Part shown: in pieces, positions 5,354 through 64,000 of the stretch
Numbering within the stretch: the stretch's first letter is position 1
Layout of the letters: each line of letters starts with the position of its first letter
Origin: Planctomycetota bacterium
GTDB taxonomy: Bacteria > Planctomycetota > GCA-002687715 > CAIWVZ01
Length of the DNA stretch: 64,000 nucleotides
Reading direction: 5' to 3'
Assembly: GCA_044222185.1 (NCBI GenBank)
Contig: JBGANV010000001.1
Coordinates: forward strand, 288,001-352,000
Notes under the pieces: generated by a model
Told to the model about the DNA's origin: nothing
What the model saw: the letters and a program-made list of their open reading frames with translations, nothing else
Database searches by the model: none
Position numbers and translations under genes: made by a program

Positions 5354-7963
5354 TCACGGCCCGACGTGCAGCTCGAGCCCGTTCGAAACGGTGATCCCGC
5401 CGGGCGAGAGCCCATCGGTGGCACCGAACTGGAGGAACACGGACTGGTTCACCAGGGACGCCGGGACCGTGAACGGGGTCGTCGCAGACCCCGCTCCCGG
5501 CGCGCCGGGCGACCCGCCGAGAGTCAGCGGAACGAAGCCGGTCCACGGCTGCACGTAGGAGGTGAGCCCCGGAAGCGGGCTGCCGGCGATCGCGGCCTCG
5601 CCGGTTCCGATCACGATGACGGCGGCCGCTCCACCGATGCCGTTGCGCAGCCGAAGGCTCGCTTGGGCTCCGGCGCGCATGGTGCCCGAAGCCCCGAGCA
5701 GCGGCTTCCACGCGCTGCCGCCGAGCGTGCCAGAGCCGTATTGGCGGACGCGTCCGGCCGTCGGCGGTGCGAAGCGGCGCGAGCGCGCCGCCTTGCCGGC
5801 GCCCACGAAGTCCAGATCGCCGTCGGCGTCGATGTCAGCAGTGGCCGTGAATCCTTGGAGGAAGTAGTCACGCCGTGCCTCGTAGACGAACCCGGGCCCG
5901 ATCCTCCTCAGCACGGCGACGGTGTTCCAGACCGACCCCGCGACGATGTCCGTCTTTCCGTCACCGTCCACGTCGCTCGCCGACAGGAGCGGGTTGAAGA
6001 CGGACCCTGCGGTCAACGTGATCGTCGTCGCGAAGGTGAACGTTCCGCCATTGTTGGCGAGGATCGTCACGCACTCGTCAGAGGTTCGATCGTCGAGCGC
6101 GATGTCGAGGTCCCCATCGTCGTCCAGATCGGCGATGACGGGCGCATACCAGTCGTTCGGGTTGGACGATCCCAGGGAGTTGCCGGTTACGACGGGATTC
6201 AGAGCGAGCGCACCGTTCGCGTTGCGCAGGATCACCACGTTCGGGTACCCGGGGACTGCGGTCTGCAACGCGACGAAGTCCGTGTCGCCGTCGCCGTCCA
6301 GGTCCGCGGCTGCCTTCGGGACGCCTCCGAAATACGATGGGGTGGAACTCGTGAAGAACCCCGTCCCGTTGTTGGTCCAGAGCAGTGGTCCCACCAGATC
6401 GACGTCGCCGTCGCCGTCGACATCCGCAGGAATGCCAGCGAGGCCTCCGGCCCCGGGAGCAGCCGCCGGTTGCAGGTCGAACAGCGCGCCGGCTCCCGTA
6501 TCGACGAGTAGGCGCATTCCCACGAAGCCTGCTGGCAACGGGAACGAAGGCAGCGTCTGGAGCGTCGCGACGTGGTCGATCCTCCCGTCACCGTTCAGAT
6601 CGGCGACCGGGTGAGTTTGCGCATACTCCAGGCCCGCCGGCGGCGTGGGCATCGTCAGCAGAGTGGGTGTGAAATTGCCGCGGCCGTCGTTCTGCGCGAC
6701 GTTCCCGGAGTACCCCACCATGTCCAGGTCGCCATCGCCGTCCTGATCGAGGATCGAGTGTGCCAGGTTGGAGCTGATCGTCGACGCGTACGGGTTCGTG
6801 AACGTTCCGTCGCCGTAATAGAGCGCGGCCGACGAGACGATGTCGGGCTTGCCGTCCCCGCTGACGTCGACCATGGCAGGGATGCGGTCGTAGTCCGAGC
6901 TCGGGCCGGCGTAGAACGACGTCCGGGAGACGAACGTCGTGCCGCCCGTGTTCTCCAGGAGGATGATGATCTCCCCGGTTCCCTGCCACGTCGTCAGGGC
7001 GAGGTCGAGATCGCCGTCTCCATCCCAGTCGCCAGGGTGGAGCTGCGAGCCGTTGGCGTCCAGGAACGTCTGGCTGGGGCCGATCGTCCAATTGCCCCCT
7101 CCCAGGTTGCGGGACACCTGCACGGAAATCCCCGCACCCGACGTGGCGGTGCCGGCGCTTTCGTTCCATGCGATGACGTCGTCGAGGCCGTCCCCATTCA
7201 CGTCGGCGCGATGAAGGAAGGGTGCCGCGGAGACTGGCACCGTCGTCGGCGTCCCGAACCCGGTCCCCACCGTGGGAAACGCGATCATCACGCGTGCCCA
7301 GCCCGGAAGATAGGTGCCGACCAACGCATCCAACGTTCCGTCAGCGTTCCAGTCGATCGTCACGACTCCCGCGCTGCTGCTGTTGAAGGGCAGGGCGCCC
7401 GGCGTCCCGCCGACGAGTGCCCCGTTGGCGCCGGAGACGAACCATCGGAGGGTGCGCGACGTACCCGGCACCTCGCTGACGACGGCGGCGTCGAGTCGAC
7501 CGTCGGCATTGAGGTCTGCCAGCGCGATGGACACCAGGTCTTCGCTGAACGGCGTCACGACGGGTGCACCGAAGAGCCCGCCACCGAGTCCTGGCATCAC
7601 CATGAGGGACGCACCGCTCGGGTTCGTGATGGGCGTTCCGAGAACCAGGTCTCCGATCCCGTCGCCCGTGACGTCACCGAAGGCCGTCACCCAGGAGACG
7701 CCAGCCGGCAGCGATTGGGTGGCGCCGTCGGTGAAGTCGCCCGTCCCGGAGTTCCACGACACCTGGATGGTGGGCTGGCCGCCCCACCACGTGTATTTGA
7801 GGATGTCCTTGTCGCCATCACCGTCCAGATCGACGACCGCCAGCGGGCTGCCTGCGGGGCCATTCGGCGTCGCTGGGGGGACACGGGGGGCCGACAGCCA
7901 TGCCTGACTCCACGATTGCGTCACCAGAACGAGCGTCATGAGCAGGAAGCTGCGCGAGAGCAT
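5354..7963 (-). CDS. Secreted FG-GAP/VCBS repeat protein with shared C-terminal domain
   Basis: Signal peptide (MLSRSFLLMTLVLVTQSWSQA); more than 10 DxDGDGDxD Ca-binding repeats; C-terminus ...VFLQFGATD..GGITVSNGLELHVGP. Confidence 0.85.
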   Translation of the reverse strand: MLSRSFLLMTLVLVTQSWSQAWLSAPRVPPATPNGPAGSPLAVVDLDGDGDKDILKYTWWGGQPTIQVSWNSGTGDFTDGATQSLPAGVSWVTAFGDVTGDGIGDLVLGTPITNPSGASLMVMPGLGGGLFGAPVVTPFSEDLVSIALADLNADGRLDAAVVSEVPGTSRTLRWFVSGANGALVGGTPGALPFNSSSAGVVTIDWNADGTLDALVGTYLPGWARVMIAFPTVGTGFGTPTTVPVSAAPFLHRADVNGDGLDDVIAWNESAGTATSGAGISVQVSRNLGGGNWTIGPSQTFLDANGSQLHPGDWDGDGDLDLALTTWQGTGEIIILLENTGGTTFVSRTSFYAGPSSDYDRIPAMVDVSGDGKPDIVSSAALYYGDGTFTNPYASTISSNLAHSILDQDGDGDLDMVGYSGNVAQNDGRGNFTPTLLTMPTPPAGLEYAQTHPVADLNGDGRIDHVATLQTLPSFPLPAGFVGMRLLVDTGAGALFDLQPAAAPGAGGLAGIPADVDGDGDVDLVGPLLWTNNGTGFFTSSTPSYFGGVPKAAADLDGDGDTDFVALQTAVPGYPNVVILRNANGALALNPVVTGNSLGSSNPNDWYAPVIADLDDDGDLDIALDDRTSDECVTILANNGGTFTFATTITLTAGSVFNPLLSASDVDGDGKTDIVAGSVWNTVAVLRRIGPGFVYEARRDYFLQGFTATADIDADGDLDFVGAGKAARSRRFAPPTAGRVRQYGSGTLGGSAWKPLLGASGTMRAGAQASLRLRNGIGGAAAVIVIGTGEAAIAGSPLPGLTSYVQPWTGFVPLTLGGSPGAPGAGSATTPFTVPASLVNQSVFLQFGATDGLSPGGITVSNGLELHVGP

Positions 7964-8229
7964 TGGGGTGTTCCTCGTGTCGTCGCCCGCCTGGCAGCGG
8001 GTGGGCGCGCGTCGGCGCGGTCGCCATGGGGTTGGCAGAGATGCACCCGGAGATTGCCGCCGAAGGCCCCGCGTTGCGACCGCCGTTCGCCCGAGCGACG
8101 CCTCGCTGCGTTCACGCGACGTTCAATCGGTTCGGACGCTCCGCCGCGCACGTGTCCGATCCCTTTCTGCGGAGCGGACCGGCAAGCCCGCGCTTGCGGG
8201 AAGTCGTCGACTCGCCGTCGATGCCCGGG

Positions 8230-8440
8230 GAGCCGGCTCGTTCGACGCCATCTTGATGTGCATGCAGATGGCGGGCCTCGACGGTCTTCAGGCGACCCGG
8301 GAGATCCGGCAGCGCGAGTCCGGCACCGGCGCGCGCGTACCGGTCATCGCCCCTTGGCAGTTGCCACGGAAGGCGGCCGCGAGGTCGGCCTTGGTGCCGG
8401 CGTGGACAGGCACACGTCGAGGCCGATCGACGTGAAGTGA
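8230..8440 (+). pseudogene. Degenerate CheY-like receiver-domain remnant (frameshifted)
   Basis: FDAILMCMQMAGLDGLQATREIRQRESGTGARVPVIA in one frame continues as LAVATEGGREVGLGAGVDRHTSRPIDVK in another; matches the hybrid-kinase receiver consensus, but the phosphoacceptor D reads C and KP reads RP. Confidence 0.7.
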
Positions 8441-8555
8441 TCGCCGCGATCGAGGCGACAGTGATGCTGCCTCGATGGAACCGCGGCGTGAGTGTTCCGC
8501 GCCTTGGCAGCCGGCCGCCCGCGCCGGCTTCATGGGCCGGCGCGAGGGCGCGGGG

Positions 8556-11261
8556 TCAGTTCGTCGCGAGTTGGCTCGCGGCAGTGAGCTTGAACGTCAG
8601 GCCTGCCGTGAGGACCGCAGCCTGGAACGTCCCGACGACGCCGGGCGTGAACGCCGGAACCGTGAAGCTCACGGTGCGCGAACCCAGCGGGCCAGTGTTC
8701 GCGAACGCATCCATGAACGTGACGGGGTTCAAGCCGTCGAGGACGATGCTCACGTCCGACAGGTTGCCGGCGCCGTTGAGGCCGATGTCCAGCGAGCCAA
8801 CGCCCGGGAAGATCGCGTTGTTGCGGTTCAGCGGTCCGAACGCGATGGCGAGCGGGCGGCTCGGCTGGCCGCTCCAGGTGAGCGCGAGCGTGGACCCCGG
8901 GGCGAGCGTTGCGAAGAACGGTCCATTGACGCCGTTGAACGCCGGCTGGCTGTTGAGGTTCACGGCACCGCCCATGGAGAGCGCCGCGTCGGCGGCGTTC
9001 GCCTGCCCGACGTCCGGCGGACCCGGGGGCGGAGGCGTCCCGCCGGTTGCGACCAGCGCGAACTTGGCGTCGATGCCAGGAGTCCCAGTGTTGCCGTCCT
9101 GGTTCAGCTCGGCGGCGATGACCTGGATGGTCCACGTTCCGACGGCGGGGTTCTGCAGGAGCACGTTCTCGACGGTGTCGAGAGTGTTCGCCACGCCGCC
9201 GGAGGTGCTGTAGTTGTTGGCCAGGAGCCCGTTGTTGCCCCAGTAGATCGTCCCCGTGGGGCTCGTGACCTTCAGGTCGAGGTTGTTGATCCGATGCTGG
9301 GTGGCGGACGTCGTTCCGGCCGGGTCGGGATACACCATCGTCACGCGGAGCTCCGGTTCGCCCGCTGCGACGTTCACGGTGTACGTGGCCGATTGCAGTA
9401 CGGTGAGCGGCGCGCTCTCGTCGATGCAGAGGACCTTGCCGGCAGTCGCGATGTTGTAGGCGCGTGACACGTCCGCCGTGCCCCAGCCCTGGTGGACGCG
9501 CGTCAGGTCGCTCGTCGTTCCGGTGAAGGGATACTGCGTGGCCGTGTTGATCAGGAGCGCCTTGACCGTCGACGCGTGCGGTCGGCGGGCGAAGACGGTG
9601 GGGCCGTTCTTCAGGACGCCGAACACGCCATCCGCGAACATCTGGGTGAGGAGACCGACGCATCCAGCGGTGATCGGCGTCGCGCCGCTCGTGCCACCGA
9701 AGTTGTCGTAGTAGTTGGTCGTGCTGTAACCGCTGCTGCCCACGATGTCCGTGCAGAAGATCCAATCGTAGAAGTTGCTGATGTCAGGCTTGATCGAGCC
9801 GTCCTCTGCCGGGCCGATGCTGCCACCGCCGGTCCAGGCGTCGTCCGTTCGCGAGAGCGTGTTCTGGTGCTTGATTCCCCCGACCGAGATGATGTTCTTC
9901 GCCCAGGCCTGCGGACGCGATTGCGTCGTTCCCGAGTTGCTCTGGCTGTTCAGGATCGGGAAGTCGAGCCCGAACACGATCTGATCCATCTGGAGCGAGG
10001 TCGCGTTGTAGGCAGTCGTCAACGCGCTTCCCCAGCTGTTCGACTGGAAGCACGCCTCGTAGGTCGGCGTCAGGAGCTGCTGCGTGTACGTGTAGCGGTT
10101 GCTGGTCACGGCTGCGTCGTTGTATTGACCGACGATCGCGTGCCCCTGCGGCAGCATGCCCGTGGCTTGCACGTTCCCCGTGCCCTTGCCGAAGACGATT
10201 CCCGTGGTGCACGTGCCGTGGTTCAACACGGCCTGCGACGAGTGCCAGGTGACGCCCGCGAGGTCGGGGTGGCTCGTATCGCAACCGCCGTCGAGGACTT
10301 CGCCGTTGACACCTTGACCGCGATAGCCGCCAGGGCCGACGGTGGAAACCGCGACGGCGCCGGTGAATTGGCGGGCGATGTCCATGTCGAGCTCGGGCGC
10401 GCTCCAGCGATCGAGCCAGAGCACGTCGTCATGCTGAATGGCGGCCCAGACCGCGGGACGTGGGAGCGACAACGTGAGGAGGCTCGTCTCGCGGACCACC
10501 GGGAGGAATTCCGTCGCGCCGAACTTCGAGAGCTCGCTTGCGATACCGAGCTTCATCGCGAGGTCGTGCTCGCGGGCCGCGACGATGTTCCACGCGAGCC
10601 CGTCCGCGAGCGCCCCGGCCTCGAGGGCGATCCGATCCTCCGGGAAGAGGCGATAGGCCGGATGATACGGGCCGACCCAGCGGACGAACGGGAGAGCCTT
10701 GACGGCGGCGAGCGACGTCGGCGGGACGTTCACGATGTCGGCATGGTTCGCCAGGAACGCGACCGGCGTGGCGCCGGCGGCGGCAACCAGCTCACGCATC
10801 TGCGGGAGTCCCGGCGCGATGTACTGAACGATCCACAACCGCTGCGACGACGATGCGGACAGTGACGGCGAAACCCATGGCGTCGACTTCAGCGGATCGA
10901 AGCGCGCGTAGCGAAGCCGCAGGTCGTAGTCGGTGGGGCGGGCGTCGAGCCAGCTCACTCCGTTGTCGACGGACTGGGAGTACCAGGGCGTATCGGTTCC
11001 GCCTTCGCTCACGGTCCACGTGGCGAGGACGGCCTTCGACTCGGGGACGTGAACCACGCGCAGGTTCCACGGCGTGCCGCCGGTTACCTGCAGCGGCGTG
11101 GCGATCACGCCCAGGTCCTGGGCGACGCTGACCACGACTTCGTTCTTTCCGTCAGGGCGTGAATGGACCGCCAGTTCGTCCTGCGCCGCCGCCGTCCATG
11201 ACGTGGCCGCGACGAGGGCGAGGGTGATCGTCCATCGGGTGTGCTTGTTCAATCGGATCAT
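8556..11261 (-). CDS. Secreted subtilisin-like S8 serine peptidase with prodomain, beta-sandwich and C-terminal domain
   Basis: Signal peptide; catalytic motifs VLDGG, NHGTCTTG, GGTSGATP; Asp-box-like SVDNGVSW; QGWG and NNLDL..NVE-like P/PPC region. Confidence 0.9.
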   Translation of the reverse strand: MIRLNKHTRWTITLALVAATSWTAAAQDELAVHSRPDGKNEVVVSVAQDLGVIATPLQVTGGTPWNLRVVHVPESKAVLATWTVSEGGTDTPWYSQSVDNGVSWLDARPTDYDLRLRYARFDPLKSTPWVSPSLSASSSQRLWIVQYIAPGLPQMRELVAAAGATPVAFLANHADIVNVPPTSLAAVKALPFVRWVGPYHPAYRLFPEDRIALEAGALADGLAWNIVAAREHDLAMKLGIASELSKFGATEFLPVVRETSLLTLSLPRPAVWAAIQHDDVLWLDRWSAPELDMDIARQFTGAVAVSTVGPGGYRGQGVNGEVLDGGCDTSHPDLAGVTWHSSQAVLNHGTCTTGIVFGKGTGNVQATGMLPQGHAIVGQYNDAAVTSNRYTYTQQLLTPTYEACFQSNSWGSALTTAYNATSLQMDQIVFGLDFPILNSQSNSGTTQSRPQAWAKNIISVGGIKHQNTLSRTDDAWTGGGSIGPAEDGSIKPDISNFYDWIFCTDIVGSSGYSTTNYYDNFGGTSGATPITAGCVGLLTQMFADGVFGVLKNGPTVFARRPHASTVKALLINTATQYPFTGTTSDLTRVHQGWGTADVSRAYNIATAGKVLCIDESAPLTVLQSATYTVNVAAGEPELRVTMVYPDPAGTTSATQHRINNLDLKVTSPTGTIYWGNNGLLANNYSTSGGVANTLDTVENVLLQNPAVGTWTIQVIAAELNQDGNTGTPGIDAKFALVATGGTPPPPGPPDVGQANAADAALSMGGAVNLNSQPAFNGVNGPFFATLAPGSTLALTWSGQPSRPLAIAFGPLNRNNAIFPGVGSLDIGLNGAGNLSDVSIVLDGLNPVTFMDAFANTGPLGSRTVSFTVPAFTPGVVGTFQAAVLTAGLTFKLTAASQLATN

Positions 11262-11277: not shown

Positions 11278-12303
11278 TCACTGCACCGTCAATTGGGTTG
11301 CGGCCGTCAACTTCACCGTCGTCGGGCTCGAGAACACGGCTGCCTGGAACGTGGTCCAGACACCGGGCGGCAGAGCGGGGACGAAGAGGCTCGTCACCGA
11401 CTGGCCCGCGGGGCCGGTGGTGGCAAACGCGTTGAAGCCGATGGGGCTCGTGCCGTCGAGAACGATGACGACGTCGCCCAGGTTCCCGGGGCCGAGGAGC
11501 CCGATGTCGAGCGACCCGAGGTTCGGGACCACCCAGTTGTTGCGGTGAAGCGGTCCTGCGAGGAGCAAGAAGATCTGATTCGCGAGTCCGCGCACGGTGA
11601 ACGTGAGCTGCGCTCCGGTCGCCTTGGTCGCGAAGAACGGTCCCTTGACGCCGTTGCCGCTCGCCTGGCCGAGGAGGTTGAGCGCGCCGTTCACGTCCAG
11701 CCCCGCGTCGGCGGCGTTTGCCTGGCCGGTGTCAGGAACGGGCGGAGGATCGACGCGCACGTTGTCGATCTGCAGCCCGTCGGTCGGCGTCGGGTTGTCG
11801 TCACGTTGCGAGAACTTGATCTTGAAGTTCGACGTGAGCTGCATGCCGTTGGCAGATGCTGCCGCCGCGATGTCGACCGTGAACTGCTGCCAGGCCGACG
11901 AGAGCGTCTGGTGGTCCACGACCTTCACCCAGTTCGCGAGGATCCCGTCGTTGATGAAGCAGCCGTCTTCCGCGTGGGGCTCGTCAGCCGTTTCCTTCGC
12001 GTAGTAGCGAAGCGTCGCGCCGCCGGTCGCCAGCACGTTGACGGTCAACGTGAGCTCCTGCGTGCTCAAGATCGCGGAGGTCGAGCAGTCGAAGTTGCAC
12101 GCCAATCCACCTTGCGGCGATGGCGTGTTCGGCGTCGCCGTCAGGATCCGTCCCGATGTGGGCACGCTCACGGTGCGTATCCACTCGGCACCCGGCCACG
12201 TGGGTGATTCGAAGTTCTCGACGTAGGGCACGGTCGCGATCTGCGCGAAGCTCGGCAGTGCGACCGCGAGGGCAATGAGACACCAGCGCGGGTCAGGCTT
12301 CAT
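11278..12303 (-). CDS. Secreted beta-sandwich protein sharing its C-terminal domain with the adjacent S8 peptidase
   Basis: Signal peptide MKPDPRWCLIALAVALPSFAQ; ENFES..W..GLQIDNVRV jelly-roll-like region; PDTGQANAADA..NGVKGPFFAT..LTAATQL closely matches the S8 C-terminus. Confidence 0.75.
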   Translation of the reverse strand: MKPDPRWCLIALAVALPSFAQIATVPYVENFESPTWPGAEWIRTVSVPTSGRILTATPNTPSPQGGLACNFDCSTSAILSTQELTLTVNVLATGGATLRYYAKETADEPHAEDGCFINDGILANWVKVVDHQTLSSAWQQFTVDIAAAASANGMQLTSNFKIKFSQRDDNPTPTDGLQIDNVRVDPPPVPDTGQANAADAGLDVNGALNLLGQASGNGVKGPFFATKATGAQLTFTVRGLANQIFLLLAGPLHRNNWVVPNLGSLDIGLLGPGNLGDVVIVLDGTSPIGFNAFATTGPAGQSVTSLFVPALPPGVWTTFQAAVFSSPTTVKLTAATQLTVQ

Positions 12304-12497
12304 GAACTCACCCATGTGGGAAAGGGAGAGAACCGGACGGCAAATGATGGGGGCGTCTCCCGAGGGTGCAGGGACGCCTGGAGGAGGATAGTCCGAAACG
12401 GAATGTGATTGCAAGAAGGGGTTTTCTTGCCATTCGCGCGCCGCCGTCCCTCGTCGGACCGCTTGCCCGGCGCCGTCGCCAGTGGGACATTCCCGCC

Positions 12498-13445
12498 ATG
12501 ACACGGACGGAGGGACACAGCCCGACGGCGTGGCCGGTCGACTGGCTTCACGTTTGGTTCATCCTTCCTCTGCTGGCAGTTTGGGCGTGGAGCCGAGAAA
12601 CCGCCGACCACTGGTGGCTTTGGCTTTCGGCCGACTTCCTGATCCTTGCGTGGCTGGGCGCGATCCAATCCCGCTCCCACACCTGGTCGCTGCGCCGCGC
12701 GGCCTTGTGGCGACTCGTCCACGGAACCGTGGCCGTGCCGCTCGTGTTCACTCAGGTGGGGCTGTCGATCGCGGCGTGTCGTCCGGTCGATCACGCGCGG
12801 ACGCTGGAGGCGCTCGACCGCTGGATGTTCCTCGGGCACAACCCGCTCGAGGCGCTCGAGCGCGTCTCCGGGCCGTGGTTGACGGAGGTCATGCAGTGGG
12901 CCTACACCGCCTATCTTCTGCTGCCGATCACCGCCGTCCTCATCCTCGTCGTGCGGGGAACCCCGCGGCAGATCACCCGGTCCCTCTTCTCGCTTCTCGG
13001 GGTCATGTATCTCTCGTACGTCGGGTATTTCGTCGTTCCCGCGAGCGGACCCAACCTGCACAACAACCTGGGGCCACTTCAGCCGGTGCCGATCCCCACG
13101 CTGCCCCTCTACCACTTCGAGACGTCATTGCCGGGGCTGTGGTGCAGCGACGGGCTGCGCGCGTGGATGTTCGAGGCCGAGCTCACGAAGAAGGACTGCT
13201 TTCCATCCGGACACGTGGCAGTGGCGATCGTCTGCTGGTGGATTGCGCGCTCCGTCGACCGGAGGACGTCGACGTGGTTCCTGCCGGTGATGATCGGCGT
13301 CGTCCTGTCGACCGTGTACCTGCGATACCACTACGTCGCCGACGTGCTCGGGGGGATCCTGCTCGCGTGGTTCGGACTCGGACCGTGGCTCGGGGTCCAC
13401 GATTGGATCGCCGCGCGCCTTCATCTGCGCCTGGACGATCGATGA
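12498..13445 (+). CDS. PAP2-superfamily membrane protein, AUR1/inositol-phosphorylceramide-synthase-like
   Basis: Several TM segments; PASGP, DCFPSGHVA and STVYLRYHYVADVLGG motifs; lies next to ceramide genes. Confidence 0.75.
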   Translation: MTRTEGHSPTAWPVDWLHVWFILPLLAVWAWSRETADHWWLWLSADFLILAWLGAIQSRSHTWSLRRAALWRLVHGTVAVPLVFTQVGLSIAACRPVDHARTLEALDRWMFLGHNPLEALERVSGPWLTEVMQWAYTAYLLLPITAVLILVVRGTPRQITRSLFSLLGVMYLSYVGYFVVPASGPNLHNNLGPLQPVPIPTLPLYHFETSLPGLWCSDGLRAWMFEAELTKKDCFPSGHVAVAIVCWWIARSVDRRTSTWFLPVMIGVVLSTVYLRYHYVADVLGGILLAWFGLGPWLGVHDWIAARLHLRLDDR

Positions 13446-13449
13446 GGCG

Positions 13450-14586
13450 TCAGATCCGTCGTTCGTAGACGCGATAGGTGCGGTAGTGCGTGGCGCCGGC
13501 GCGGTCGAGGGCGTTGTTCATCGCCGTGTTCGTCTCCAGCACCCACGACATTTCGCCGCGCGGCATCCCTGCTGCGACACAGTTCTTCGTGATGTGGTGG
13601 TACAGCACGCTGTCGATCGCGTGACCTTGAAGAGCACGGCGCACTCCCAACGTGATCACGCGCGCCGATCCCACCTTCCTGCGCCCCAGCAGAATGCGGA
13701 CGATGCCGAACGGGAACAGCCGGCCACGCAGGTTGATGATGATCCGGTTCAGGTCGGGCAGTGCGAGCGCGAAGCCGACCTCGCGTCCATCTTTCATGAC
13801 GAAGACGCAGAGCTCGGGGACGACGATGGGGCGCAGCTCCTTCGCCATGAACTCGAATTCGGCATCGGTCATGGGGACGAAGCCCCAGTTCCGAGACCAG
13901 GCGTCCTGGTAGAGGTCCTGAATGATCCGGACGTCGTCGCGGAACCTCCGCATGTCGAGCGTGCGGACGGAGAGGCCCTCGCGCTGCATCACCTTCGTGC
14001 ACACGCGTTCCCAGCGCGCGCTGTCGGCTTCCGCGGACGTCATCCGCCACGCCCACAGGTCCATCGCCTTCGTGAACCCGGCGCGCTCGCAGAGTTCGCC
14101 GTACCACGGCGGGTTGTAGGGCATCATCAGCACGGGCGGGCCCGGCTCGCCGGAGTGGAGGAAGCCGAACTCGTCGTTGGACGAGAGTGACGCCGGTCCG
14201 CGAAGCACCGTCTGTCCGCGAGGACGGAGCCATCCTGCGGCGGCGTCGAACAGCGCACCGGCCGTCGACGGGTTGCGTTCCGCTTCGAAGAAGCCAAAGA
14301 AGCCCGTCGTCTCGCCGTGGAATTCGTTGTGCAGCCGGTTCACGGTGGCTGCGATGCGGCCGACGACCGTGCCGCTCCGTCGGGCGAGGAAGAGCGCGGC
14401 CTCGCCGTGCTCGAAATACGGGTGGCGTTTGGGATCCAGCCGGATGCGGATGTCGCGCTCGAGCGGCGGGACGAAGTTCCGGTCACCCTGATAGAGCCGG
14501 TAGGGGAGGCGGACGAACGCGTCGAGGTCAGCGCGCGAGCGGACCTCCGTGACGCTCACCCCGGTTTCAGGCGCGGTGGTTGGCAC
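13450..14586 (-). CDS. GNAT-fold acyltransferase, bacterial ceramide synthase (bCerS)-like
   Basis: FVRLPYRLY..FVPPL..HPYFEH..VVGRIAA..GFFGFFE..MMPYNPPWY..NWGFVPMT..EMSWVLETN pattern; overlaps the spt stop. Confidence 0.75.
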   Translation of the reverse strand: MPTTAPETGVSVTEVRSRADLDAFVRLPYRLYQGDRNFVPPLERDIRIRLDPKRHPYFEHGEAALFLARRSGTVVGRIAATVNRLHNEFHGETTGFFGFFEAERNPSTAGALFDAAAGWLRPRGQTVLRGPASLSSNDEFGFLHSGEPGPPVLMMPYNPPWYGELCERAGFTKAMDLWAWRMTSAEADSARWERVCTKVMQREGLSVRTLDMRRFRDDVRIIQDLYQDAWSRNWGFVPMTDAEFEFMAKELRPIVVPELCVFVMKDGREVGFALALPDLNRIIINLRGRLFPFGIVRILLGRRKVGSARVITLGVRRALQGHAIDSVLYHHITKNCVAAGMPRGEMSWVLETNTAMNNALDRAGATHYRTYRVYERRI

Positions 14587-15784
14587 TCGCGGTGACGGGC
14601 TGGGACTTCGCGGCGAGGTGCGAGAAGACCTCGATCACCTGATCGATGTCGCGATCCTCGTGCGTCGCCATGTACGACGTCCGGATGAGACCCTTGCCGG
14701 GCGGCGTCGCCGGCGGAACGACGGGGTTCGCGAAGATCCCGTGCTCGTCCAGTCGCTTCCAGAATTTGAACGTGTCCATGTCGTCACCGATCAGGACCGG
14801 GACGATGGGCGTCTCCGATCCCATGGTGTCGTATCCGAGCGCCTGAAGCGACGTGCGAACCCTCGTGCAGATCGTCCGGAGCCGATCGACGCGCCATGGC
14901 TCCTGCTCGAGGATGGTGAGCGCCGCGAGGGCCGCCGCCGTGCTGGCGGGCGTGCAGCTCGCGGAGAAGATCATGGAGCGCGCGGTGTGCTTGATGTAGT
15001 GGATGACCTCTTCGCGGCCGGCGACGAATCCACCGAGGGACGCCAGCGACTTGCTGAACGTGCCCGTGACGATGTCGACTTCGGACGGTCCGTTTTCGAG
15101 GAGGCCGAAGTGTTCGAGCGTCCCGCGGCCGGTCCGCCCGAGCGGTCCGAGCCCGTGCGCATCGTCCACGAGGACCCTAGCGCCATAGGCCTTCGCCAGT
15201 TTCACCAGGGCCGGCAGGTTCGTGATGCTGCCGTTCATGGAGAACACGCCGTCCACGATGATGAGCTTGCCTGAGCTGGCCGGGCTCTGTTCGAGCAGGC
15301 GCTCCAGGTCGTCCATGTCGTCGTGCCGGAACTTCTTGATCTCGGCGAACGAGAGGCGGCAGCCGTCGATGATCGACGCGTGGTTCTCGCGGTCGCAGTA
15401 GACGATGTCGCCCTTGCCGGCGACCGTGGAGATCACACCGAGGTTCGCCTGGTACCCCGTGGAGAAGACGACGGCGGCTTCCTTGCCAAGGAACTTCGCG
15501 AGCCGGAGTTCCAGCTCCTCGTGCAACTCGAGGGTGCCGTTCAGGAACCGTGACCCCGTGCAACTGCTTCCGAAACGGGCAGTTGCGCTCCGGGCTGCCT
15601 CGACGACGCGCGGATCGTGCGTCAAGCCGAGGTAGTTGTTCGACCCGATCATGATGACGTCCCGGCCATTGATCTTGGCGCGGGTCGCCTCGTTGGCGGA
15701 GAGCGGGCGGAAGTAGGGGAAGTTGCCAGATGCCATCAGTTCGCGCGCCCGCGTGAACCGGTGGCACTTGTCGAACAAGTCCAC
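14567..15784 (-). CDS. spt: Serine palmitoyltransferase (alpha-oxoamine synthase family, PLP-dependent)
   Basis: GTG start after AGGGGG; GSNNYLGL, GSRFLNGT, NHASIIDG, DDAHG, GTFSKS (PLP Lys); coupling to a bCerS-like gene favours Spt over BioF/Kbl. Confidence 0.8.
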   Translation of the reverse strand: MDLFDKCHRFTRARELMASGNFPYFRPLSANEATRAKINGRDVIMIGSNNYLGLTHDPRVVEAARSATARFGSSCTGSRFLNGTLELHEELELRLAKFLGKEAAVVFSTGYQANLGVISTVAGKGDIVYCDRENHASIIDGCRLSFAEIKKFRHDDMDDLERLLEQSPASSGKLIIVDGVFSMNGSITNLPALVKLAKAYGARVLVDDAHGLGPLGRTGRGTLEHFGLLENGPSEVDIVTGTFSKSLASLGGFVAGREEVIHYIKHTARSMIFSASCTPASTAAALAALTILEQEPWRVDRLRTICTRVRTSLQALGYDTMGSETPIVPVLIGDDMDTFKFWKRLDEHGIFANPVVPPATPPGKGLIRTSYMATHEDRDIDQVIEVFSHLAAKSQPVTASANHRA

Positions 15785-15955
15785 GAGTGCTGGTCCCCCT
15801 GGTTGATTCCTACGAACACTTCCGGGCACGGGACGGCCGGCGACGCCGAACGGCCCAGCGGAAGCGAGACCGATGGACCCGACGACCTGGATGAAGCCGC
15901 CAACAGATGACACCCTGACCCAAACCGGGGCTGGTTCTAACAGACGATTCACTCG

Positions 15956-16963
15956 TTGGAAGGGAGCGGCGTGTCAGCGGGACGGTCCATGCTGGTCACC
16001 GGAGCGTCGGGGTTCATTGGTGGCCGATTGCTCAAGATTGCGGCGGAGGCGGGCTGGAATGTGGTCGCCATGGTCCGGCGCCAGGGCCTCTCGGCCGAGT
16101 CGGCCGCCCTCGTGCGCGAGGTCCGCATGGCCGACCTGCGCGATGATCCGTCGCTCCGAAGTGCCGTGGCGGGAATCACCTGCGTCGTCCACCTTGCGGG
16201 GCTGACCCGAGCGAAGACCGAGGCGGAGTTCCACGACTTCAACGCCGCGGGTACACGGCGACTCGTCGATGCGATCACGTGCACGACGTCCGGGGTGGTG
16301 CCCCGCCTCATCCACGTCTCCAGCCTCTCTGCCGGCGGACCGTCGGCCGGCCGTACGCCCGTCGACGAGGGTCTGGAGCCTGCACCCGTGAGTCCCTACG
16401 GCCGGTCGAAGCTCGCCGGAGAGAACGAAGTCAAAAGGGCCGCGGCCGCCCTCCGTTGGACGATCATCCGCCCTCCCATCGTCTACGGGCCGGGTGAGCG
16501 GGACGTGCTCGACCTCTTCCGACGCTCACGGTCAGGGCTCGTGCCGGTCGTCGGATTCCAGGAGCGCTGGTACTCGATCGTCCACGTGGACGACCTCTGC
16601 CGGGCGATCCTCGCCGCCGCCGCGAGCGACCGTGCGGTCGGGCGGACCTATTACATCGCGAACCAGACGCCATTGTCCGGCGCCGAGCTCGCTGAGCGCA
16701 TCATCCGAGCGACCGGCGGCCGTGCGCGGCCGATCCGCATCCCCGACTGGGTCGCGGGACTGGTGGCTCTCGCAGGGTCGGCTGCCAAGCCGTTCCGGCG
16801 GACCTCGCCCCTCGTCACGCTGGACAAGTACCCGGAGATCGTGCGGAGCTGGGTGTGTTCGCCGGCTCGCGCGTCGGCGGAACTCGGCTTCGAGCCGCAG
16901 ATCCCCATCGACGACGGCTTGAGGACGACGGCCGATTGGTATCGCGCCGCCGGCTGGCTCTGA
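15956..16963 (+). CDS. NAD-dependent epimerase/dehydratase (extended SDR), candidate ceramide/3-ketosphingoid reductase
   Basis: TGASGFIG Rossmann motif, HLAG, YGRSK, RPPIVYGPG; divergent from spt; exact start uncertain. Confidence 0.75.
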   Translation: MEGSGVSAGRSMLVTGASGFIGGRLLKIAAEAGWNVVAMVRRQGLSAESAALVREVRMADLRDDPSLRSAVAGITCVVHLAGLTRAKTEAEFHDFNAAGTRRLVDAITCTTSGVVPRLIHVSSLSAGGPSAGRTPVDEGLEPAPVSPYGRSKLAGENEVKRAAAALRWTIIRPPIVYGPGERDVLDLFRRSRSGLVPVVGFQERWYSIVHVDDLCRAILAAAASDRAVGRTYYIANQTPLSGAELAERIIRATGGRARPIRIPDWVAGLVALAGSAAKPFRRTSPLVTLDKYPEIVRSWVCSPARASAELGFEPQIPIDDGLRTTADWYRAAGWL

Positions 16964-28909: not shown

Positions 28910-29160
28910 CGACTGGTCACCGGCGGGGCGCGCCTCAAGGCTCAGCGATGCTAACGCTGCGATGCGACCCGGTATTCACCTCCGTGCTCCGGCAGGGAGC
29001 GGCCGCCTCGACTGAATAATGAGTCGCGCTCGGGCGTTCGTCAGAGCCGATTCGGGCTTCGGGCCTCGTCAGTCCTCGGGCGCGAGCCGGTCGTAGACGC
29101 CGGATGAAAAATCCATAGACTGTCGCCCCTCGAAACCACCCACCTCCCGGAGGCGCGTTG

Positions 29161-30726: not shown

Positions 30727-30727
30727 A

Positions 30728-33177: not shown

Positions 33178-33181
33178 TGAC

Positions 33182-34423: not shown

Positions 34424-34424
34424 A

Positions 34425-45337: not shown

Positions 45338-45411
45338 GCACCCATAGCTCAATTGGATAGAGCATCTGACTACGGATCAGAAGGTTGGAGGTTCGAGTCC
45401 TCCTGGGTGCG
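45338..45411 (+). tRNA. tRNA-Arg (anticodon ACG), CCA not encoded
   Basis: GCACCCA/TGGGTGC acceptor stem, D arm GCTCAATTGGATAGAGC, anticodon arm TCTGA-CTACGGA-TCAGA, T arm GGAGG-TTCGAGT-CCTCC. Confidence 0.96.
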
Positions 45412-45568
45412 CTTGGTGCGATTCAGGGCTTCGAGAAGGAGCGCGGCCGACCCTGCCGGTGCCCGAGCCACACGGCATTTGTCCAAGTCCTCGGGCGGGG
45501 CGACCGTCGGCCCATTCCTGCGCATCCTCGATCTGATCGGTCGCAACCCATCGCGACGCGGGGCTGCC

Positions 45569-47714: not shown

Positions 47715-47838
47715 CGCGCCAGCCTATTCGGTTGCCCAGGGGACCCCAACCATTCGTCGACCGGTCGAGGGCTCGCGGAAGCCGTCGCACTCGTTGTATC
47801 CTGACGCGTGCCTCGTGCAGCGCGGGCGTGGCGGAGCG

Positions 47839-57420: not shown

Positions 57421-59115
57421 ATGTTCACCATCATGAGACTCGAACACACGTTCATCGCGGTCGTCACCATCGTCTACGCCGCCGTCGCTCAGCAGTTGCC
57501 GCGGCTCCAGCACATCGAGTTCAACGCGGGGGTACCGTCGTCGTTCGGAACGCGCGTGGCGACGGTCGGCGACCTGGATCACGACGGCTTCGAGGACTAC
57601 GCCGTGGGCTCTCCAGACGAGACGCTGGGCAATCCCTCCGTTCCCCAATACCTCGGCGTCGTCCGCGTCTATTCGGGCGCGACGGGCGCCATCCTCCACA
57701 CGCTTTCGGGCACGCTGCCGTTCGATCGTTTCGGTTGGTCCGTCGGCGGCGGTGGTGACGTCGATGCCGACGGGACGCCCGACGTGATCGTCGGGCTCCC
57801 GCTGGGCGCAAACACGTCGACGACCGGCAACGTGAAGGTGTTCTCGGGGAGCAGCGGTCTCTCGATCCGCACCTACGTTCTTCCGACCCTCTACGGTTAT
57901 CGCGTCGCCAACGCGGGCGACATCGACGGCGACGGCCGCGCGGACGTCATGACCTCGAGTGGGCTGTTCGCGCTTCCGAGCGCGTCGACCCTCACGCCGG
58001 TGCTCGTGCTGTCCGGCGCAACGGGCCTGGTGATCGCCAGCTACACCGGAATCGCCGCGGGCGTGAGCACGCCTTACGACTCGTGGGGAATTTCGCTCGC
58101 TGGTGGGCGCGATCTGAATGGCGACGGGCGGGACGACGTCCTCATCGGATTCGCATCCCAGGGCGGCCTCGGCAACCAGCACGGGGGAGTCGTGGCTTGC
58201 TCGGGTCTGACGGGCGGTGTCATCCAGTCGTACGGCGGTGCACCCGTGTTCAGCTTCCTCGGAGAGTCCGTCGTGTTCATGCCGGACATCGACGGGGACG
58301 GCCGACCCGACGTGGTCGCTGGAGGGACGGGAAACGGGAGCGTGAGCGTTCCTGGGACCGTGCGGGCCTACTCGGGGCTGGGCGGAGCGCTCCTCTTCAG
58401 CATCACGAGCCCGGTGCTGGCCGACTCGTTCGGCGGCGCACTCGCAGGCGGGCGCGACCTGGACGGCGATGGCGTCGCGGACTTCGTCACGAGCACCCCG
58501 GGACTCAATCCGTCGGGCATTCAGCCTCCAGCGGGCTCCGCGCTCGGGGTCGTCCGCGCCTACTCGGGCGCGACAGGTGCGCTGATCGGGCTCGTCGCAG
58601 GGCGCGCCCCTGGCGCGAACTACGGCGGAGCACTGGCGATGCTCGCAGACACGAACGGCGACGGATTCGACGAGGTCGTCGTCGGCGCCGGACAGGACGA
58701 CACGATCTTCGGAACGGACGCCGGGAGCGTCGACGTCATCGAGTTTGCGGGCGCCCTCGGGTTCGGTGTTGGGAACGGCACCCTCCAGCTCGGAGTGATT
58801 CACGGGCCCTTCGGGGCGAACTGGGTCGGTGCCCTGCGTGCGTCCGGGGCGGGTCCGGGTGCGGCCGGGTTCATCGCGGCCGATCTGGCTCCGGCGAACA
58901 CGACGATCGCCAACCCGCCGATTCCCCTCTACCTCGCGGTGACGCCGGCACTGCTGCTCCAGCCGATCACGTTCGACGGGAGCGGCGCGTGGTCGACACC
59001 CGTGCTCCTGCGCCAACCGGCCGTCGCGGGCCTCGTCGCCTACGCGCAGGCGTTCGAGGTCAGCGGTCCGACGTTCGTCGCGTCCGGTGGGATGCAGCTG
59101 CTGTTCAGCAACTAG
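57421..59115 (+). CDS. Secreted integrin-alpha/FG-GAP beta-propeller protein with C-terminal domain
   Basis: About 7 units of FG..V..GDxDGDGxxD..VG.P..G.VRxYSGATG; ends ..AGLVAYAQAF..SGGMQLLFSN. Confidence 0.87.
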   Translation: MFTIMRLEHTFIAVVTIVYAAVAQQLPRLQHIEFNAGVPSSFGTRVATVGDLDHDGFEDYAVGSPDETLGNPSVPQYLGVVRVYSGATGAILHTLSGTLPFDRFGWSVGGGGDVDADGTPDVIVGLPLGANTSTTGNVKVFSGSSGLSIRTYVLPTLYGYRVANAGDIDGDGRADVMTSSGLFALPSASTLTPVLVLSGATGLVIASYTGIAAGVSTPYDSWGISLAGGRDLNGDGRDDVLIGFASQGGLGNQHGGVVACSGLTGGVIQSYGGAPVFSFLGESVVFMPDIDGDGRPDVVAGGTGNGSVSVPGTVRAYSGLGGALLFSITSPVLADSFGGALAGGRDLDGDGVADFVTSTPGLNPSGIQPPAGSALGVVRAYSGATGALIGLVAGRAPGANYGGALAMLADTNGDGFDEVVVGAGQDDTIFGTDAGSVDVIEFAGALGFGVGNGTLQLGVIHGPFGANWVGALRASGAGPGAAGFIAADLAPANTTIANPPIPLYLAVTPALLLQPITFDGSGAWSTPVLLRQPAVAGLVAYAQAFEVSGPTFVASGGMQLLFSN

Positions 59116-59500: not shown

Positions 59501-59647
59501 GGAGCGGCATTCTGGGGACGACTGCGCGCCGCGCAAAGGGCATCAGCCGGGCGACTTCCCGCTTCGGTACGACTGGCAGGTTGAGCGCGGGCCGTGTATA
59601 CACACCGAATCCGACGCGACGTCGCGTCCCCCACCCGGAGCCCAGGC

Positions 59648-60223
59648 ATGCGCCGATTCGACCTGCGGATCGTCATGTTCGTCACGGTGTTCGCTCTCGT
59701 CGCGCCCTACGCGGGGAGCACGATCCTCATCGTCAAGAACCTCGGCGAACTCGCCCGCGAGGCGGATGCGATCGTCGTCGGTCGCGTCACGGGCGCTGAG
59801 TCGCGCTGGGGGAACGGGCAGTCGATCATCTGGACGCATCACTCCATGCGGGTGGAGGAGACGTGGAAGGGTGACCTCACCGGCGAGATCGTCGTCAGTG
59901 AGATCGGCGGGACGGTGGGAACCAAGTCCCAGTTTCTTTGCGGCGCTCCGTCGTACAGGGCCGGCGACCACGTCCTCTTGTTCCTCAAGCGCGACGCCGG
60001 TGGGCTTCTGCGCACGTACGGCTGGCTGCAGGGGCGGTTCGACCTCGCCGCCGATTCCGCGCACCTCGGCGCCTGGCTCGTGACGCCGTCGTTCAGGCAC
60101 GTGATCGACGGCTTCGTTCCGGCGAGCGAGGTACGTGATGGCGGATCCGTCGACCTGGATCGCTTCCGCAACCAGGTGATCGACCTGGTGCATTCGCCGG
60201 CCCGTCGTGGGGAGGGACGTTGA
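59648..60223 (+). CDS. Secreted protein, probable partner/propeptide-like domain of the adjacent metalloprotease
   Basis: Signal peptide; ELAREADAIVVGRV..VEETWKG..GGTVG..GAPSY..GDHVLLFL; overlaps the start of the next gene. Confidence 0.7.
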   Translation: MRRFDLRIVMFVTVFALVAPYAGSTILIVKNLGELAREADAIVVGRVTGAESRWGNGQSIIWTHHSMRVEETWKGDLTGEIVVSEIGGTVGTKSQFLCGAPSYRAGDHVLLFLKRDAGGLLRTYGWLQGRFDLAADSAHLGAWLVTPSFRHVIDGFVPASEVRDGGSVDLDRFRNQVIDLVHSPARRGEGR

Positions 60224-61926
60224 TGCGCCGCCTGGTCCTCGGTTCGATCTTGGTCGTCGTCTTCATGGTCATCGCGCCGGCTCACGTTCCCACGTTGGTC
60301 GTCCCCCCGTCTGGCGGCGGGACGATCACCTGGCCGCAGAACGCAACGATCAACTACAAGCTGCATTCGAGCGTTCCGGGCGGGTTCGTGGCTGCGGTCG
60401 ACGCCTCGTTCCACGCCATCGACGTGGAGACGCCACTCACGTTCGTCAACGGTGGTGCCACGGCGATCGCGACCGTCGGGACGGATGGCACCAACGTCAT
60501 CACGTTCGCGAACAACACGACGAACCTGCAGGCCGTCGGCGGTGCACTCGCCGTCACGCTCGTGAGCTTCTCGAGCGGGACCATCAGCGAGGCGGACATC
60601 GTGTTCAACCCGGCGACGACGTTCTCGACCAACCTGGCGGCGAGCACCTTCGACGTGCAATCGGTTGGGACGCACGAAGCGGGGCATTTCGTCGGCCTCG
60701 ACCACAGCCCGATGCTCGACGCGACGATGTACCCCACGACGTCGGCGGCCACGTCGATCCGCCGCACGCTCGCCGCCGATGACCGCTCGGGACTGCGCCT
60801 CCTCTATCCAGGGAACACGGCCGCGACGGTGGGCACGGTCACCGGCACGATCCAACGCGCGCCGGGCCAGCTCGTGGGCGGCGCGCACCTCGTCCTGCGG
60901 GACGTCGTCACGGGGCGCAGCATCGACGGCGGAGTCAGCCGGGGGACGGGCGCGTTCACCATCAGCGCCGTCCCTCCGAGCGACTATCACCTCTACGTGG
61001 AGCCGTTGGACACGCCGTTCCAGCCCGCCAACCTGGGCTCGTCGTATTGGGGAACGGTGACCTTCGACACGTCGTTCAGGACGGCGGTTCTCGGCGGGAC
61101 CGCGAATCCGACCGTCCTCGCCGTGCGCCCGGGGGTGACGACGAACGTGGGCACGTTCACCGTCGCGGGGCCGGCGCCCACGTTGAATCTCGTGGCGGTC
61201 GCCGCGCTCGCGACCGCGAACGGCGGCTTCTCCTTCTCGACCGGCCAGCCGGTCGGGTTGTCGGCTCCGTACTCGCAATGGCTCGTCGTCGTCGGAAACT
61301 CGGTCAACACGCTCGCCGATTCGGCGTTCAACTTTCAGAGCCCCTTCATCTCGTTCTCGGGCCCGAGCACGGGGAGTGGCACGCTCGGTGGCGGTCTTGC
61401 GTTCAAGATCTTCCCGGTCGCGGTCGCGTCCAACGCGCCGTCCGGTGGATACCTTCTGCGCGTCGTCGACCCGAACACGTCCGAGATGGCCATCGCGCCC
61501 GGGCTCGTCGAGGTGTTGCCGACGGCGACGCCGCAGGCCTGGGCAGCGACGTACGGACCGAATTGCCCGGGCGCCGCTGGCGCCACGCTGCTGACCATCC
61601 CGTCGCCACCGAGCCTGGGTAACGGGCAGTTCCGTTTCGCGCTGAGCAACACGTCCGCCGTCGAAACCGCCTTCTTCTTCTTCTCCACGAACGCCGACTA
61701 CGTCCTCGTGCTGCCCTCCTGCAACGCGAGCGTCGACTTGAGCCGGCTGATCATCCCGTTCCCTGGATTCTCGTTGCCGTGCGGAGCGGGCAGCACGACG
61801 CTGTTCATGCCCCTTCCGAACACGCCTGCGCTCGCGGGCCTGGATGTCTACGCGCAGTGCGCGGTGATCGTGAACGCCACGGCTGCCACGCGGGTGACGA
61901 ACGCCGCCCAGCTGCACTTCGAATAG
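60220..61926 (+). CDS. Secreted matrixin-like (metzincin) metalloprotease with beta-sandwich and C-terminal domain
   Basis: EADIVFN, FDVQSVGTHEAGHFVGLDHS (HExxHxxGxxH), Met-turn ATMYP; ends ..PALAGLDVYAQ..TNAAQLHFE. Confidence 0.88.
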   Translation: MMRRLVLGSILVVVFMVIAPAHVPTLVVPPSGGGTITWPQNATINYKLHSSVPGGFVAAVDASFHAIDVETPLTFVNGGATAIATVGTDGTNVITFANNTTNLQAVGGALAVTLVSFSSGTISEADIVFNPATTFSTNLAASTFDVQSVGTHEAGHFVGLDHSPMLDATMYPTTSAATSIRRTLAADDRSGLRLLYPGNTAATVGTVTGTIQRAPGQLVGGAHLVLRDVVTGRSIDGGVSRGTGAFTISAVPPSDYHLYVEPLDTPFQPANLGSSYWGTVTFDTSFRTAVLGGTANPTVLAVRPGVTTNVGTFTVAGPAPTLNLVAVAALATANGGFSFSTGQPVGLSAPYSQWLVVVGNSVNTLADSAFNFQSPFISFSGPSTGSGTLGGGLAFKIFPVAVASNAPSGGYLLRVVDPNTSEMAIAPGLVEVLPTATPQAWAATYGPNCPGAAGATLLTIPSPPSLGNGQFRFALSNTSAVETAFFFFSTNADYVLVLPSCNASVDLSRLIIPFPGFSLPCGAGSTTLFMPLPNTPALAGLDVYAQCAVIVNATAATRVTNAAQLHFE

Positions 61927-62949: not shown

Positions 62950-63003
62950 AATGGGGGCGCGCGCCACGCAGAGCGTCCACGAGGCGCGCGCGTTGGATCC
63001 GAG

Positions 63004-64000
63004 TCACGGCCCGACGTGGAGGACGATTCCGTTCGTGACCGAGACTCCCGCCGGGGCCGTGGGGTCGGCGATCGCGCCCTGGAACGTCGCCACGAGCGGC
63101 GACGTGATCGCGGGAACGAGCCAGCTCCACGGTGCCGGCGGCACCTGAAGCAGTGCCTCGTTGCCTACACTCGACGCGAGCCAGAGCGTGGGGCTCCCGG
63201 GACCCGGAGGCGGCATGCAGAACTGGCCGATGGGCGATGGCGTCAGCATCGATGGCGTTGGCTCGCCGAGCATCACGAACACCGCCATGTCGGCGTTTCC
63301 CACCGGCGGGAGCATCCGGATCGTGAATGGAACGCCGAGGGGCTCGAAGGCAGAGCGTGTGGAGATCCAGCCGAGCTGCGAACTCATCGAAAGCACCGGA
63401 ATCGGGACGCCGACGGATTCACCGACCCGACTGTCGAGGCACGACCGCGAGATGAAGACGCCTGCCACCGGTGGCTCGCCGCCAACCGAACAAACGCCGC
63501 TCATCACGATGTCTCGGCCGCCGCCGTCGTCGTAGGTCGCGGTGACCACTCCGTCTCCGATCGGCGTGTTCGCGACCACATCCCACGCCGTGCCGTTCCA
63601 GCGCGTGATCCCCGACCCCGCGATGTCGAGGTGCAGTCGTGGCCCGCTTCCGGAGTCGTAGGCGAACAGCCGCCCAGGGCCTGGGGCGCCGCCAGCGAGT
63701 GGCTCCCAACCGGCAGTCCCGAGTCGCGCCACGTTGTTCAGGCCGCCCATCACGAACGATCCGCTGACGAACACGTGAGGCCCCGTCCCATCGTCGAGAA
63801 CTTCGATGGACTCCGCCGTTCCGTAGCAGAGGTAGGGGATGTTCTCGTAGTCGCAGTCCGCGAACCCGCCGAGCGTCGTCAACGCGGTGCCACTCCATTG
63901 CAACGCGATGCCTTGTCTCGAGTAGGGCGTCCACGCGATGTCGTACGTTGCGAAGAGCGCTGGCCCGACAGAATCCGTCCTTTGGATCAGCGACGTGAAC
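63004..64000 (-). CDS. Secreted beta-propeller-like protein with shared C-terminal domain (5'-truncated by window edge)
   Basis: Frame is open to the window end; repeats VLDDGTGP/YDSGSGP/YDDGGG and RWNGTAW; ends TFQGAIADPTAPAGVSVTNGIVLHVGP. Confidence 0.75.
   Translation of the reverse strand, partial: FTSLIQRTDSVGPALFATYDIAWTPYSRQGIALQWSGTALTTLGGFADCDYENIPYLCYGTAESIEVLDDGTGPHVFVSGSFVMGGLNNVARLGTAGWEPLAGGAPGPGRLFAYDSGSGPRLHLDIAGSGITRWNGTAWDVVANTPIGDGVVTATYDDGGGRDIVMSGVCSVGGEPPVAGVFISRSCLDSRVGESVGVPIPVLSMSSQLGWISTRSAFEPLGVPFTIRMLPPVGNADMAVFVMLGEPTPSMLTPSPIGQFCMPPPGPGSPTLWLASSVGNEALLQVPPAPWSWLVPAITSPLVATFQGAIADPTAPAGVSVTNGIVLHVGP

Follow-up and report, generated by a model that had tools for sequence, protein, structure and literature searches.

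Terminal domains encoded in the window

The stretch of DNA analysed here (the window) is a 64,000-nucleotide section of the genome of a Planctomycetota bacterium (contig JBGANV010000001.1, positions 288,001 to 352,000), with a G+C content of 63-69%, in which several genes for otherwise unrelated secreted proteins carry a small beta-rich domain at one end. A first-pass annotation, made from the sequence alone, had proposed that seven of these genes end in one and the same domain, serving as a lineage-specific sorting or anchoring signal. Pairwise, profile and profile-profile (hhalign) comparisons did not bear out a single domain common to all seven tails and divided them into two families, here termed A and B, and one unassigned tail. 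An additional family A copy, overlooked in the earlier annotation, was found in a Kelch-repeat gene at 17107-18681, for which the database gene model (P0055) begins at 17107. The 64 kb therefore hold seven assigned domains and one unassigned tail, and it is concluded firmly that two undescribed families of terminal beta-sandwich domain occur as modules on unrelated exported proteins (the cargo) and are dense in this window. The genes concerned are listed below (aa, amino acids).

60223-61926, forward strand: matrixin (M10), 567 aa; family A at residues 438-567 (window 61534-61923), the reference member
5354-7963, reverse strand: FG-GAP repeat protein, 869 aa; family A at residues 738-868 (window 5357-5752)
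57421-59115, forward strand: integrin-like FG-GAP protein, 564 aa; divergent family A at residues 445-563 (window 58753-59112)
17107-18681, forward strand: Kelch-repeat protein, 524 aa; N-terminal family A at residues 31-140 (window 17197-17526), abutting the signal peptide
63004-63999, reverse strand: edge gene, truncated at the 5' end by the window border and without a Pfam family; similarity to the end of family A over the last 26-29 residues only (window 63007-63096)
8556-11261, reverse strand: S8 subtilase, 901 aa; Pfam Peptidase_S8; family B at residues 752-901 (window 8559-9008)
11278-12315, reverse strand: secreted 345-aa protein; no Pfam family; family B at residues 196-345 (window 11281-11730)
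45569-46939, reverse strand: Kelch-repeat protein, likely start 46939; C-terminal ~125 residues (window 45572-45946) fit neither family

The end coordinates given previously for the seven open reading frames (ORFs) were correct, and Pfam bore out the unrelatedness of their upstream parts, with FG-GAP, S8, Kelch, FG-GAP and matrixin families in five and no Pfam family in the other two. The matrixin gene at 60223 encodes a CarboxypepD_reg-like domain in addition to Peptidase_M10. Sec-type signal peptides had also been claimed, and a signal-peptide-like stretch indeed opens every complete gene, with positive charge followed by a hydrophobic segment ending near A-x-A or A-Q (read by eye and with a crude hydrophobicity heuristic, not SignalP). 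The two near-identical gene endings were present as described, ITVSNGLELHVGP in the 5354 gene and VSVTNGIVLHVGP in the edge gene. In the latter, the part of the presumed tail beyond the last 26-29 residues, to about 63420, is only putatively family A. The best explanation of these observations is that at least seven Sec-exported proteins of the window carry a family A or a family B domain.

Separation of the tails into two families

Pairwise searches (blastp and phmmer) among the seven tails linked the S8 and 11278 tails, which were 56% identical over 147 residues (E 8e-47 and 1.7e-41, respectively), and the 5354 and edge gene tails over their final 20 residues (E 5.7e-5 in the seven-sequence database), and gave no further links. 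When the matrixin tail (130 aa) was searched by phmmer against 1.84 billion representative proteins, 42 proteins were recovered at E ≤ 1e-3, comprising the query's own protein and 41 from outside the window; a word-index search with this tail alone matched only the query's own protein. One of the 41, the six-repeat protein P0024, probably matched spuriously and was excluded. The family A profile (132 positions, extending to the protein ends) was built from 40 outside domains and the query, and its use against longer proteins added 12 more outside members, bringing the set to 57 proteins, five from the window and 52 from outside.

The profile was run with filters off on all 414 stop-to-stop ORFs of at least 80 aa in the window. 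With the matrixin tail as seed, full-length matches to this externally built profile were obtained for the 5354 FG-GAP tail (39.7 bits, E 9.5e-12), the N-terminal domain of the 17107 Kelch protein at 17197-17526 (53.6 bits, E 4.8e-16) and the integrin-like tail (16.9 bits, E 1.1e-4, model positions 15-129). The edge gene matched over its last 26 residues only (11.2 bits, E 0.006, model positions 107-132), and 200 shuffles of each tail reached a maximum of 8.1 bits. Comparison by hhalign with a profile of the 52 outside-only sequences gave the same assignments, with probabilities of 98% over 125 columns for the 5354 tail, 97.9% for the 17107 Kelch domain, 83.6% for the integrin-like tail (score 34.9; best shuffle 18.7) and 72% over 26 columns for the edge gene. 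The edge gene additionally showed a weak full-length phmmer alignment to the 17107 Kelch domain (13.7 bits). The single S8 and 11278 tails gave only noise against family A (hhalign probabilities of 0.3 and 0.5%, within the shuffle range). The tails and the pair of near-identical endings noticed at first are real. The tails do not all align with one another.

The tail of the 45569 Kelch protein was noise against both family profiles (hhalign probability of 1.9% against family A, within the shuffle range). Two observations serve as leads only: the ESM Atlas clusters nearest to this tail are from Planctomycetota (scores 0.92-0.93), and P0048, a Kelch relative 36% identical to the 45569 protein, ends in a canonical family A domain. 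The 3' (tail) end of the 45569 gene is followed closely by a tRNA-Arg gene with anticodon ACG (45338-45412, forward strand), the sole Rfam/ARAGORN match in the window.

Features of family A

Family A domains are about 110-130 aa in length and share a core in which YGxGCxG, P.LGN..F, a second cysteine (GCxL) and iP..P.L.G....Q...D are followed by (S/T)(N/R/D)(G/A)l.l..g, the last strand, with which the protein finishes; in short form the pattern reads YGxGCxG ... iPxxPxLxG....Q ... SNGLxLxxG-end. Particular residues were conserved across cargo types in the 56 aligned sequences (Q in 55/56, P in 53/56 and G in 52 of the 54 without a gap). The cysteine pair co-varies, both residues being present in 35/56, neither in 18/56 and only one in 3/56 of the sequences; this fits a disulfide, which is likely on these sequence grounds and would place the domain outside the cytoplasm. 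The 5354 tail belongs to a subtype with a GAPGAPGAGSA-like loop that also occurs in P0057, P0059, P0061, P0062 and P0064. Judged from the phmmer and profile matches, family A is a genuine sequence family.

In 54/57 proteins no more than a few residues (0-4) separate the domain from the C-terminus. In the other three (P0055 of this window, P0056 and P0066) it is N-terminal, beginning 17-30 residues into the protein after a signal-peptide-like stretch, and P0063 has a second, more divergent copy upstream, in a tandem or internal position. According to precomputed Pfam accessions, the cargo includes matrixin, FG-GAP, Kelch and BNR/sialidase-type propellers and CarboxypepD_reg. A signal-peptide-like start was found by our own hydrophobicity heuristic in 27 of the 34 family A proteins that begin with M and are longer than 250 aa. 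Of the seven without one, two have what by eye resembles a signal peptide, and others look like fragments. An AlphaFold2 (AF2) model of the matrixin tail (pLDDT 88.7, pTM 0.81) had ten strands and no helix of four or more residues.

Family B and its relation to family A

A two-sequence profile of the S8 and 11278 tails served as the family B seed and recovered 30 proteins at E ≤ 1e-3, of which 28 are not encoded in the window. The domain is about 150 aa long and, with unaligned model positions counted, runs to 0-3 residues from the C-terminus in all 30. Its first residues form a conserved xGQAN motif, before which there is usually a proline-rich linker ending in PD, and this holds for all cargo types (window domains and P0068-P0094); the S8 subtilase of the window likewise has a proline-rich linker before its domain. 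The PD-xGQAN junction might be cleaved during processing, or it might be no more than the domain's first strand. At the other end the pattern is …LTAAxxLTxx. The cargo comprises S8 (nine proteins), LTD, PKD, trypsin-like and M14 domains, and under the same length and start requirements and heuristic as above a signal-peptide-like start was present in 26/27 proteins. The AF2 model of the 11278 tail (pLDDT 95.2, pTM 0.90) had twelve strands and a single five-residue helix. Family B, too, is a real family, judged from the 30 proteins recovered.

Profile-profile comparison of families A and B by hhalign gave a probability of 67% and a score of 32.8, against 18.3 for the best of 100 column-shuffled versions of B and 14.2 for reversed B. 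Co-linearity extended over 51 C-terminal columns, or 66 when realignment was omitted, and both alignments finish at the protein end. The two models are confident and all-beta; their strand numbers are similar and strand order and lengths correspond roughly. The two families are therefore probably homologous, if distantly so, and both are predicted by the models to be stand-alone immunoglobulin-like (Ig-like) beta-sandwiches.

Taxonomic range and relatives of the matrixin without the domain

The domain had been expected to be lineage-specific, and this holds as far as the named relatives show: the three relatives whose source is named are all from Planctomycetota bacterium, and the ESM Atlas summaries agree. 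The Atlas clusters nearest to the matrixin tail are planctomycetal (scores 0.96-0.98), and those nearest to the matrixin and 45569 tails are 117-139 aa long with no common Pfam family. In the genome_contigs collection the best match to the matrixin was a metagenome-assembled genome of Planctomycetia (45% identity).

Patterns from the matrixin part were used to collect 80 loci (1.3 Mb), mostly of Acidobacteriota with some Myxococcota, Pseudomonadota and others, whose only uses were as a negative control and as a source of C-termini from relatives of the matrixin. None of their 5730 ORFs matched family A or B at E ≤ 0.01, the best values with filters off being 0.095 and 0.1. Relatives of the matrixin (P0008) that match to residue 400 or beyond numbered 43, of which 42 were acidobacterial and one verrucomicrobial. 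The planctomycete tail was present in 0/43: 28 finish within six residues of the shared three-domain core, 13 have an unrelated extension of about 250-320 aa, in many cases ending EY(R/Q)xRFG, and two have shorter extensions. The existence of such tail-less relatives implies that the cargo works without the domain.

Immediately before the matrixin gene lies a small ORF (59594-60223, forward strand), about 190 aa long when read from an internal ATG, that opens with a signal-peptide-like stretch and belongs to no Pfam family. It shares 1-4 bases with the beginning of the matrixin gene and is therefore probably co-transcribed with it; its product could be an inhibitor or helper of the matrixin protease.

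Search for known relatives

No Pfam or NCBIfam family covered any of the seven tails at E ≤ 0.1. Equally, 17 family A members had no Pfam or NCBIfam match at E ≤ 1, and the 29 family B alignment members had no curated family match at E ≤ 0.01. Against PDB sequences, family A gave no match at E ≤ 10 and family B a single one at E 0.7. By sequence, then, the tails have no Pfam, NCBIfam or PDB relative, and the possibility that they represent an already described domain was not borne out. Literature searches by title and abstract likewise found no description of such a domain at that level. A Choice-of-anchor J identity for the 345-aa protein, raised by a weak match (E 0.049), was rejected, with 0/29 members of the family B alignment matching at E ≤ 0.01.

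Structural comparison with the PDB by Foldseek returned nothing at E ≤ 1e-3 for the family A model; among the matches listed, the best were macroglobulin domains of complement C3 and CVF, at a template-modelling (TM) score of 0.52, followed by lytic polysaccharide monooxygenase (LPMO)/chitin-binding and then GM2-activator/MD-2 type sandwiches. For family B, four of the listed matches reached E ≤ 1e-3; most were to antibody V domains, and their TM scores were 0.34-0.43. No type IX C-terminal domain was among the best 50 of at least 500 matches for either model.

Comparison with known terminal modules

Several known systems resemble the two families in part. The C-terminal domains of the type IX secretion system, type A and type B, are likewise beta-sandwiches of roughly 80-150 residues at the very C-terminus, are found on many unrelated Sec-exported proteins and occur in more than one sequence type per genome. 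Families A and B differ from them, however, in having no Pfam or NCBIfam profile match and no such domain among the listed structural matches; moreover, family A is also found N-terminally and in tandem, although family B was C-terminal in 30/30, and no type IX machinery was seen in a Pfam scan of the window. Dockerins, from cellulosome-like systems, share the character of a small terminal module, mostly C-terminal and common to many secreted enzymes, that attaches non-covalently to one partner. They are short calcium-binding helical repeats with a duplicated loop-helix motif, whereas the A and B models are all-beta, with no helix of four or more residues in A and one five-residue helix in B, and the families have no Pfam match.

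PEP-CTERM/exosortase and MYXO-CTERM/myxosortase systems also place lineage-specific C-terminal tags on varied secreted proteins. In these tags a short motif precedes a transmembrane helix, after which comes a basic tail, unlike in families A and B, which are folded domains ending in a predicted beta-strand, with no hydrophobic helix and no profile match. The catalytic part of the matrixin gave a weak match, at 55.7 bits (cut-off 250) and E 3.7e-15, to a family of myxosortase-dependent metalloproteases. The pre-peptidase C-terminal (PPC) domain of bacteria is a C-terminal beta-sandwich on secreted S8 and metalloproteases; there was no profile match to it, and families A and B are also found on non-protease propellers. 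Generic Ig-like and carbohydrate-binding sandwiches share the fold class, with Ig V, complement C3 macroglobulin and LPMO/chitin-binding domains as neighbours among the matches listed, but TM scores were at most 0.52, no sequence family matched and the terminal placement of families A and B is unusually strict.

Other genes in the window

Just upstream of the 17107 Kelch gene, the interval 12366-16963 encodes a PAP2-family phosphatase, an ORF without Pfam family, a class I/II aminotransferase and an NAD-dependent epimerase, and two GT2 glycosyltransferases come after the Kelch gene; these genes and the GT2 pair may form an envelope lipid or glycan cluster. At 15-5331 (forward strand) is a run of three genes for a PrkA-type kinase (AAA_PrkA and PrkA), DUF444 and SpoVR, a trio known as a stress or starvation module conserved in many bacteria. 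An ECF-type (extracytoplasmic function) sigma factor followed by a zf-HC2 anti-sigma factor is encoded at 27405-28909 (reverse strand). The region 29158-41302 (forward strand) holds an unusual paralogue array of eight consecutive same-strand ORFs matching Amidohydro_1/3, one of them a 945-aa double-length form. A 962-aa protein encoded at 47602-50490 (forward strand) combines a Ser/Thr protein kinase with a C-terminal FGE-sulfatase (sulfatase-modifying-factor-like) domain.

Interpretation of the domains

The reading that is favoured here, tentatively and with ample room left for others, is that the domains are a common module, indifferent to cargo, by which proteins are retained at the surface or targeted to it, and not a strict C-terminal export signal. 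They would act outside the cytoplasm, because of the signal-peptide-like starts and the likely disulfide, and would there bind one shared component of the cell envelope whatever the cargo, so that proteases and beta-propeller proteins would be held at the cell surface much as by dockerin, surface-layer homology (SLH) or retained C-terminal domain modules. They would not, on such a model, be linear export signals that need a C-terminal place. The broad cargo, the strict terminal position, the likely disulfide and the linkers together suggest a common extracytoplasmic module with one and the same task on any cargo, and the proline-rich linkers before family B suggest an independent unit. Since family A is also found at the N-terminus and in tandem, a free C-terminus seems dispensable, which favours a folded binding module that retains or targets its cargo at the surface. 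The targeting or attachment role originally put forward is accordingly kept in part: the tails are real, modular, restricted to the lineage on the evidence of the named relatives, and found on proteins with signal-peptide-like starts, but they are neither one domain nor obligatorily C-terminal, with three of 57 family A copies at the N-terminus and one protein having two copies.

A number of points weigh against the surface-retention reading. The function is an inference, and a position 0-4 residues from the C-terminus would be expected just as much of a cleaved sorting signal. Only 57 and 30 proteins make up the sample, which was gathered with C-terminal tails as queries, and the taxonomic range is poorly sampled, as it draws on three named proteins and the Atlas summaries. 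The 45569 Kelch tail stays unexplained by either family, the homology of A and B is only probable, and the Foldseek matches, being only generic Ig-like ones, are uninformative on function.

A different explanation is that the domains are recognition tags by which proteins cross the outer membrane through a dedicated, unknown planctomycetal translocon and that they are then cleaved or used for attachment, which would make them functional analogues of type IX domains, both type A and type B. Such tags would be expected at the extreme protein end, as was seen in 54/57 and 30/30 proteins, and the Ig-like beta-sandwich models, the very broad cargo, two sequence families within one genome, the local density of the domains and, more speculatively, the conserved PD-xGQAN junction of family B as a possible processing site are all in keeping with this. 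However, family A is N-terminal in three of its 57 proteins and forms one tandem pair, no sorting-domain profile matched in Pfam or NCBIfam, the 50 Foldseek matches listed for each model contained no type IX C-terminal domain, and a Pfam scan of 36 other ORFs of the 64-kb window gave no candidate gene for export or display machinery; a type IX system is not known from Planctomycetota. It is considered unlikely that an undescribed pathway of Planctomycetota, for export across the outer membrane or for display at the surface, uses A and B to mark its cargo, acting as folded terminal tags at either end and possibly removed at PD-xGQAN, and the proposed analogy with type IX domains is held to be improbable to the same degree.

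A slightly better case, though still a doubtful one, can be made for ligand-binding modules resembling carbohydrate-binding modules (CBMs) or lectins, with an external target such as a polymer, a prey-cell surface or a matrix instead of the producer's own envelope; the diverse enzymes and propellers would in that event, which is to be viewed with equal reserve, be brought to the same substrate. Occurrence at either end and in tandem is frequent for binding modules, proline-rich linkers would suit them, cargo relatives function without the domain, and there is a weak Foldseek likeness to carbohydrate-binding and chitin-binding/LPMO-type sandwiches (5ftz, 8wae, 2ben, 3uam). Yet all Foldseek scores were weak (E at least 6.5e-4, TM at most 0.52), no CBM or lectin family matched in Pfam, the cargo consists mainly of proteases and propellers and not of glycoside hydrolases, and binding modules are usually less strictly C-terminal than the 0-4 residues seen here. 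It is very improbable that the domains lack a targeting role altogether and are folding or maturation aids or inert spacers of the PPC kind, kept by descent in a domain-shuffling lineage. Several cargo proteins are indeed secreted proteases (S8, M10, M14 and trypsin-like) and there are matrixin relatives entirely without the tail, but the domains are also carried by FG-GAP, Kelch and BNR propellers, which are not proteases, specific Q, P and G residues are strongly conserved across cargo types, and no PPC profile matched in the Pfam scans.

If the domains were merely binding or spacer modules, their annotation would be useful but ordinary. How proteins of Planctomycetota cross the outer membrane and are displayed at the surface is poorly understood, and the two profiles offer a sequence handle with which the surface and secreted proteome of this lineage can be listed, as well as two new domain families for curation. 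The domains themselves may serve as bait for a receptor or machinery, through phylogenetic profiling or pull-down.

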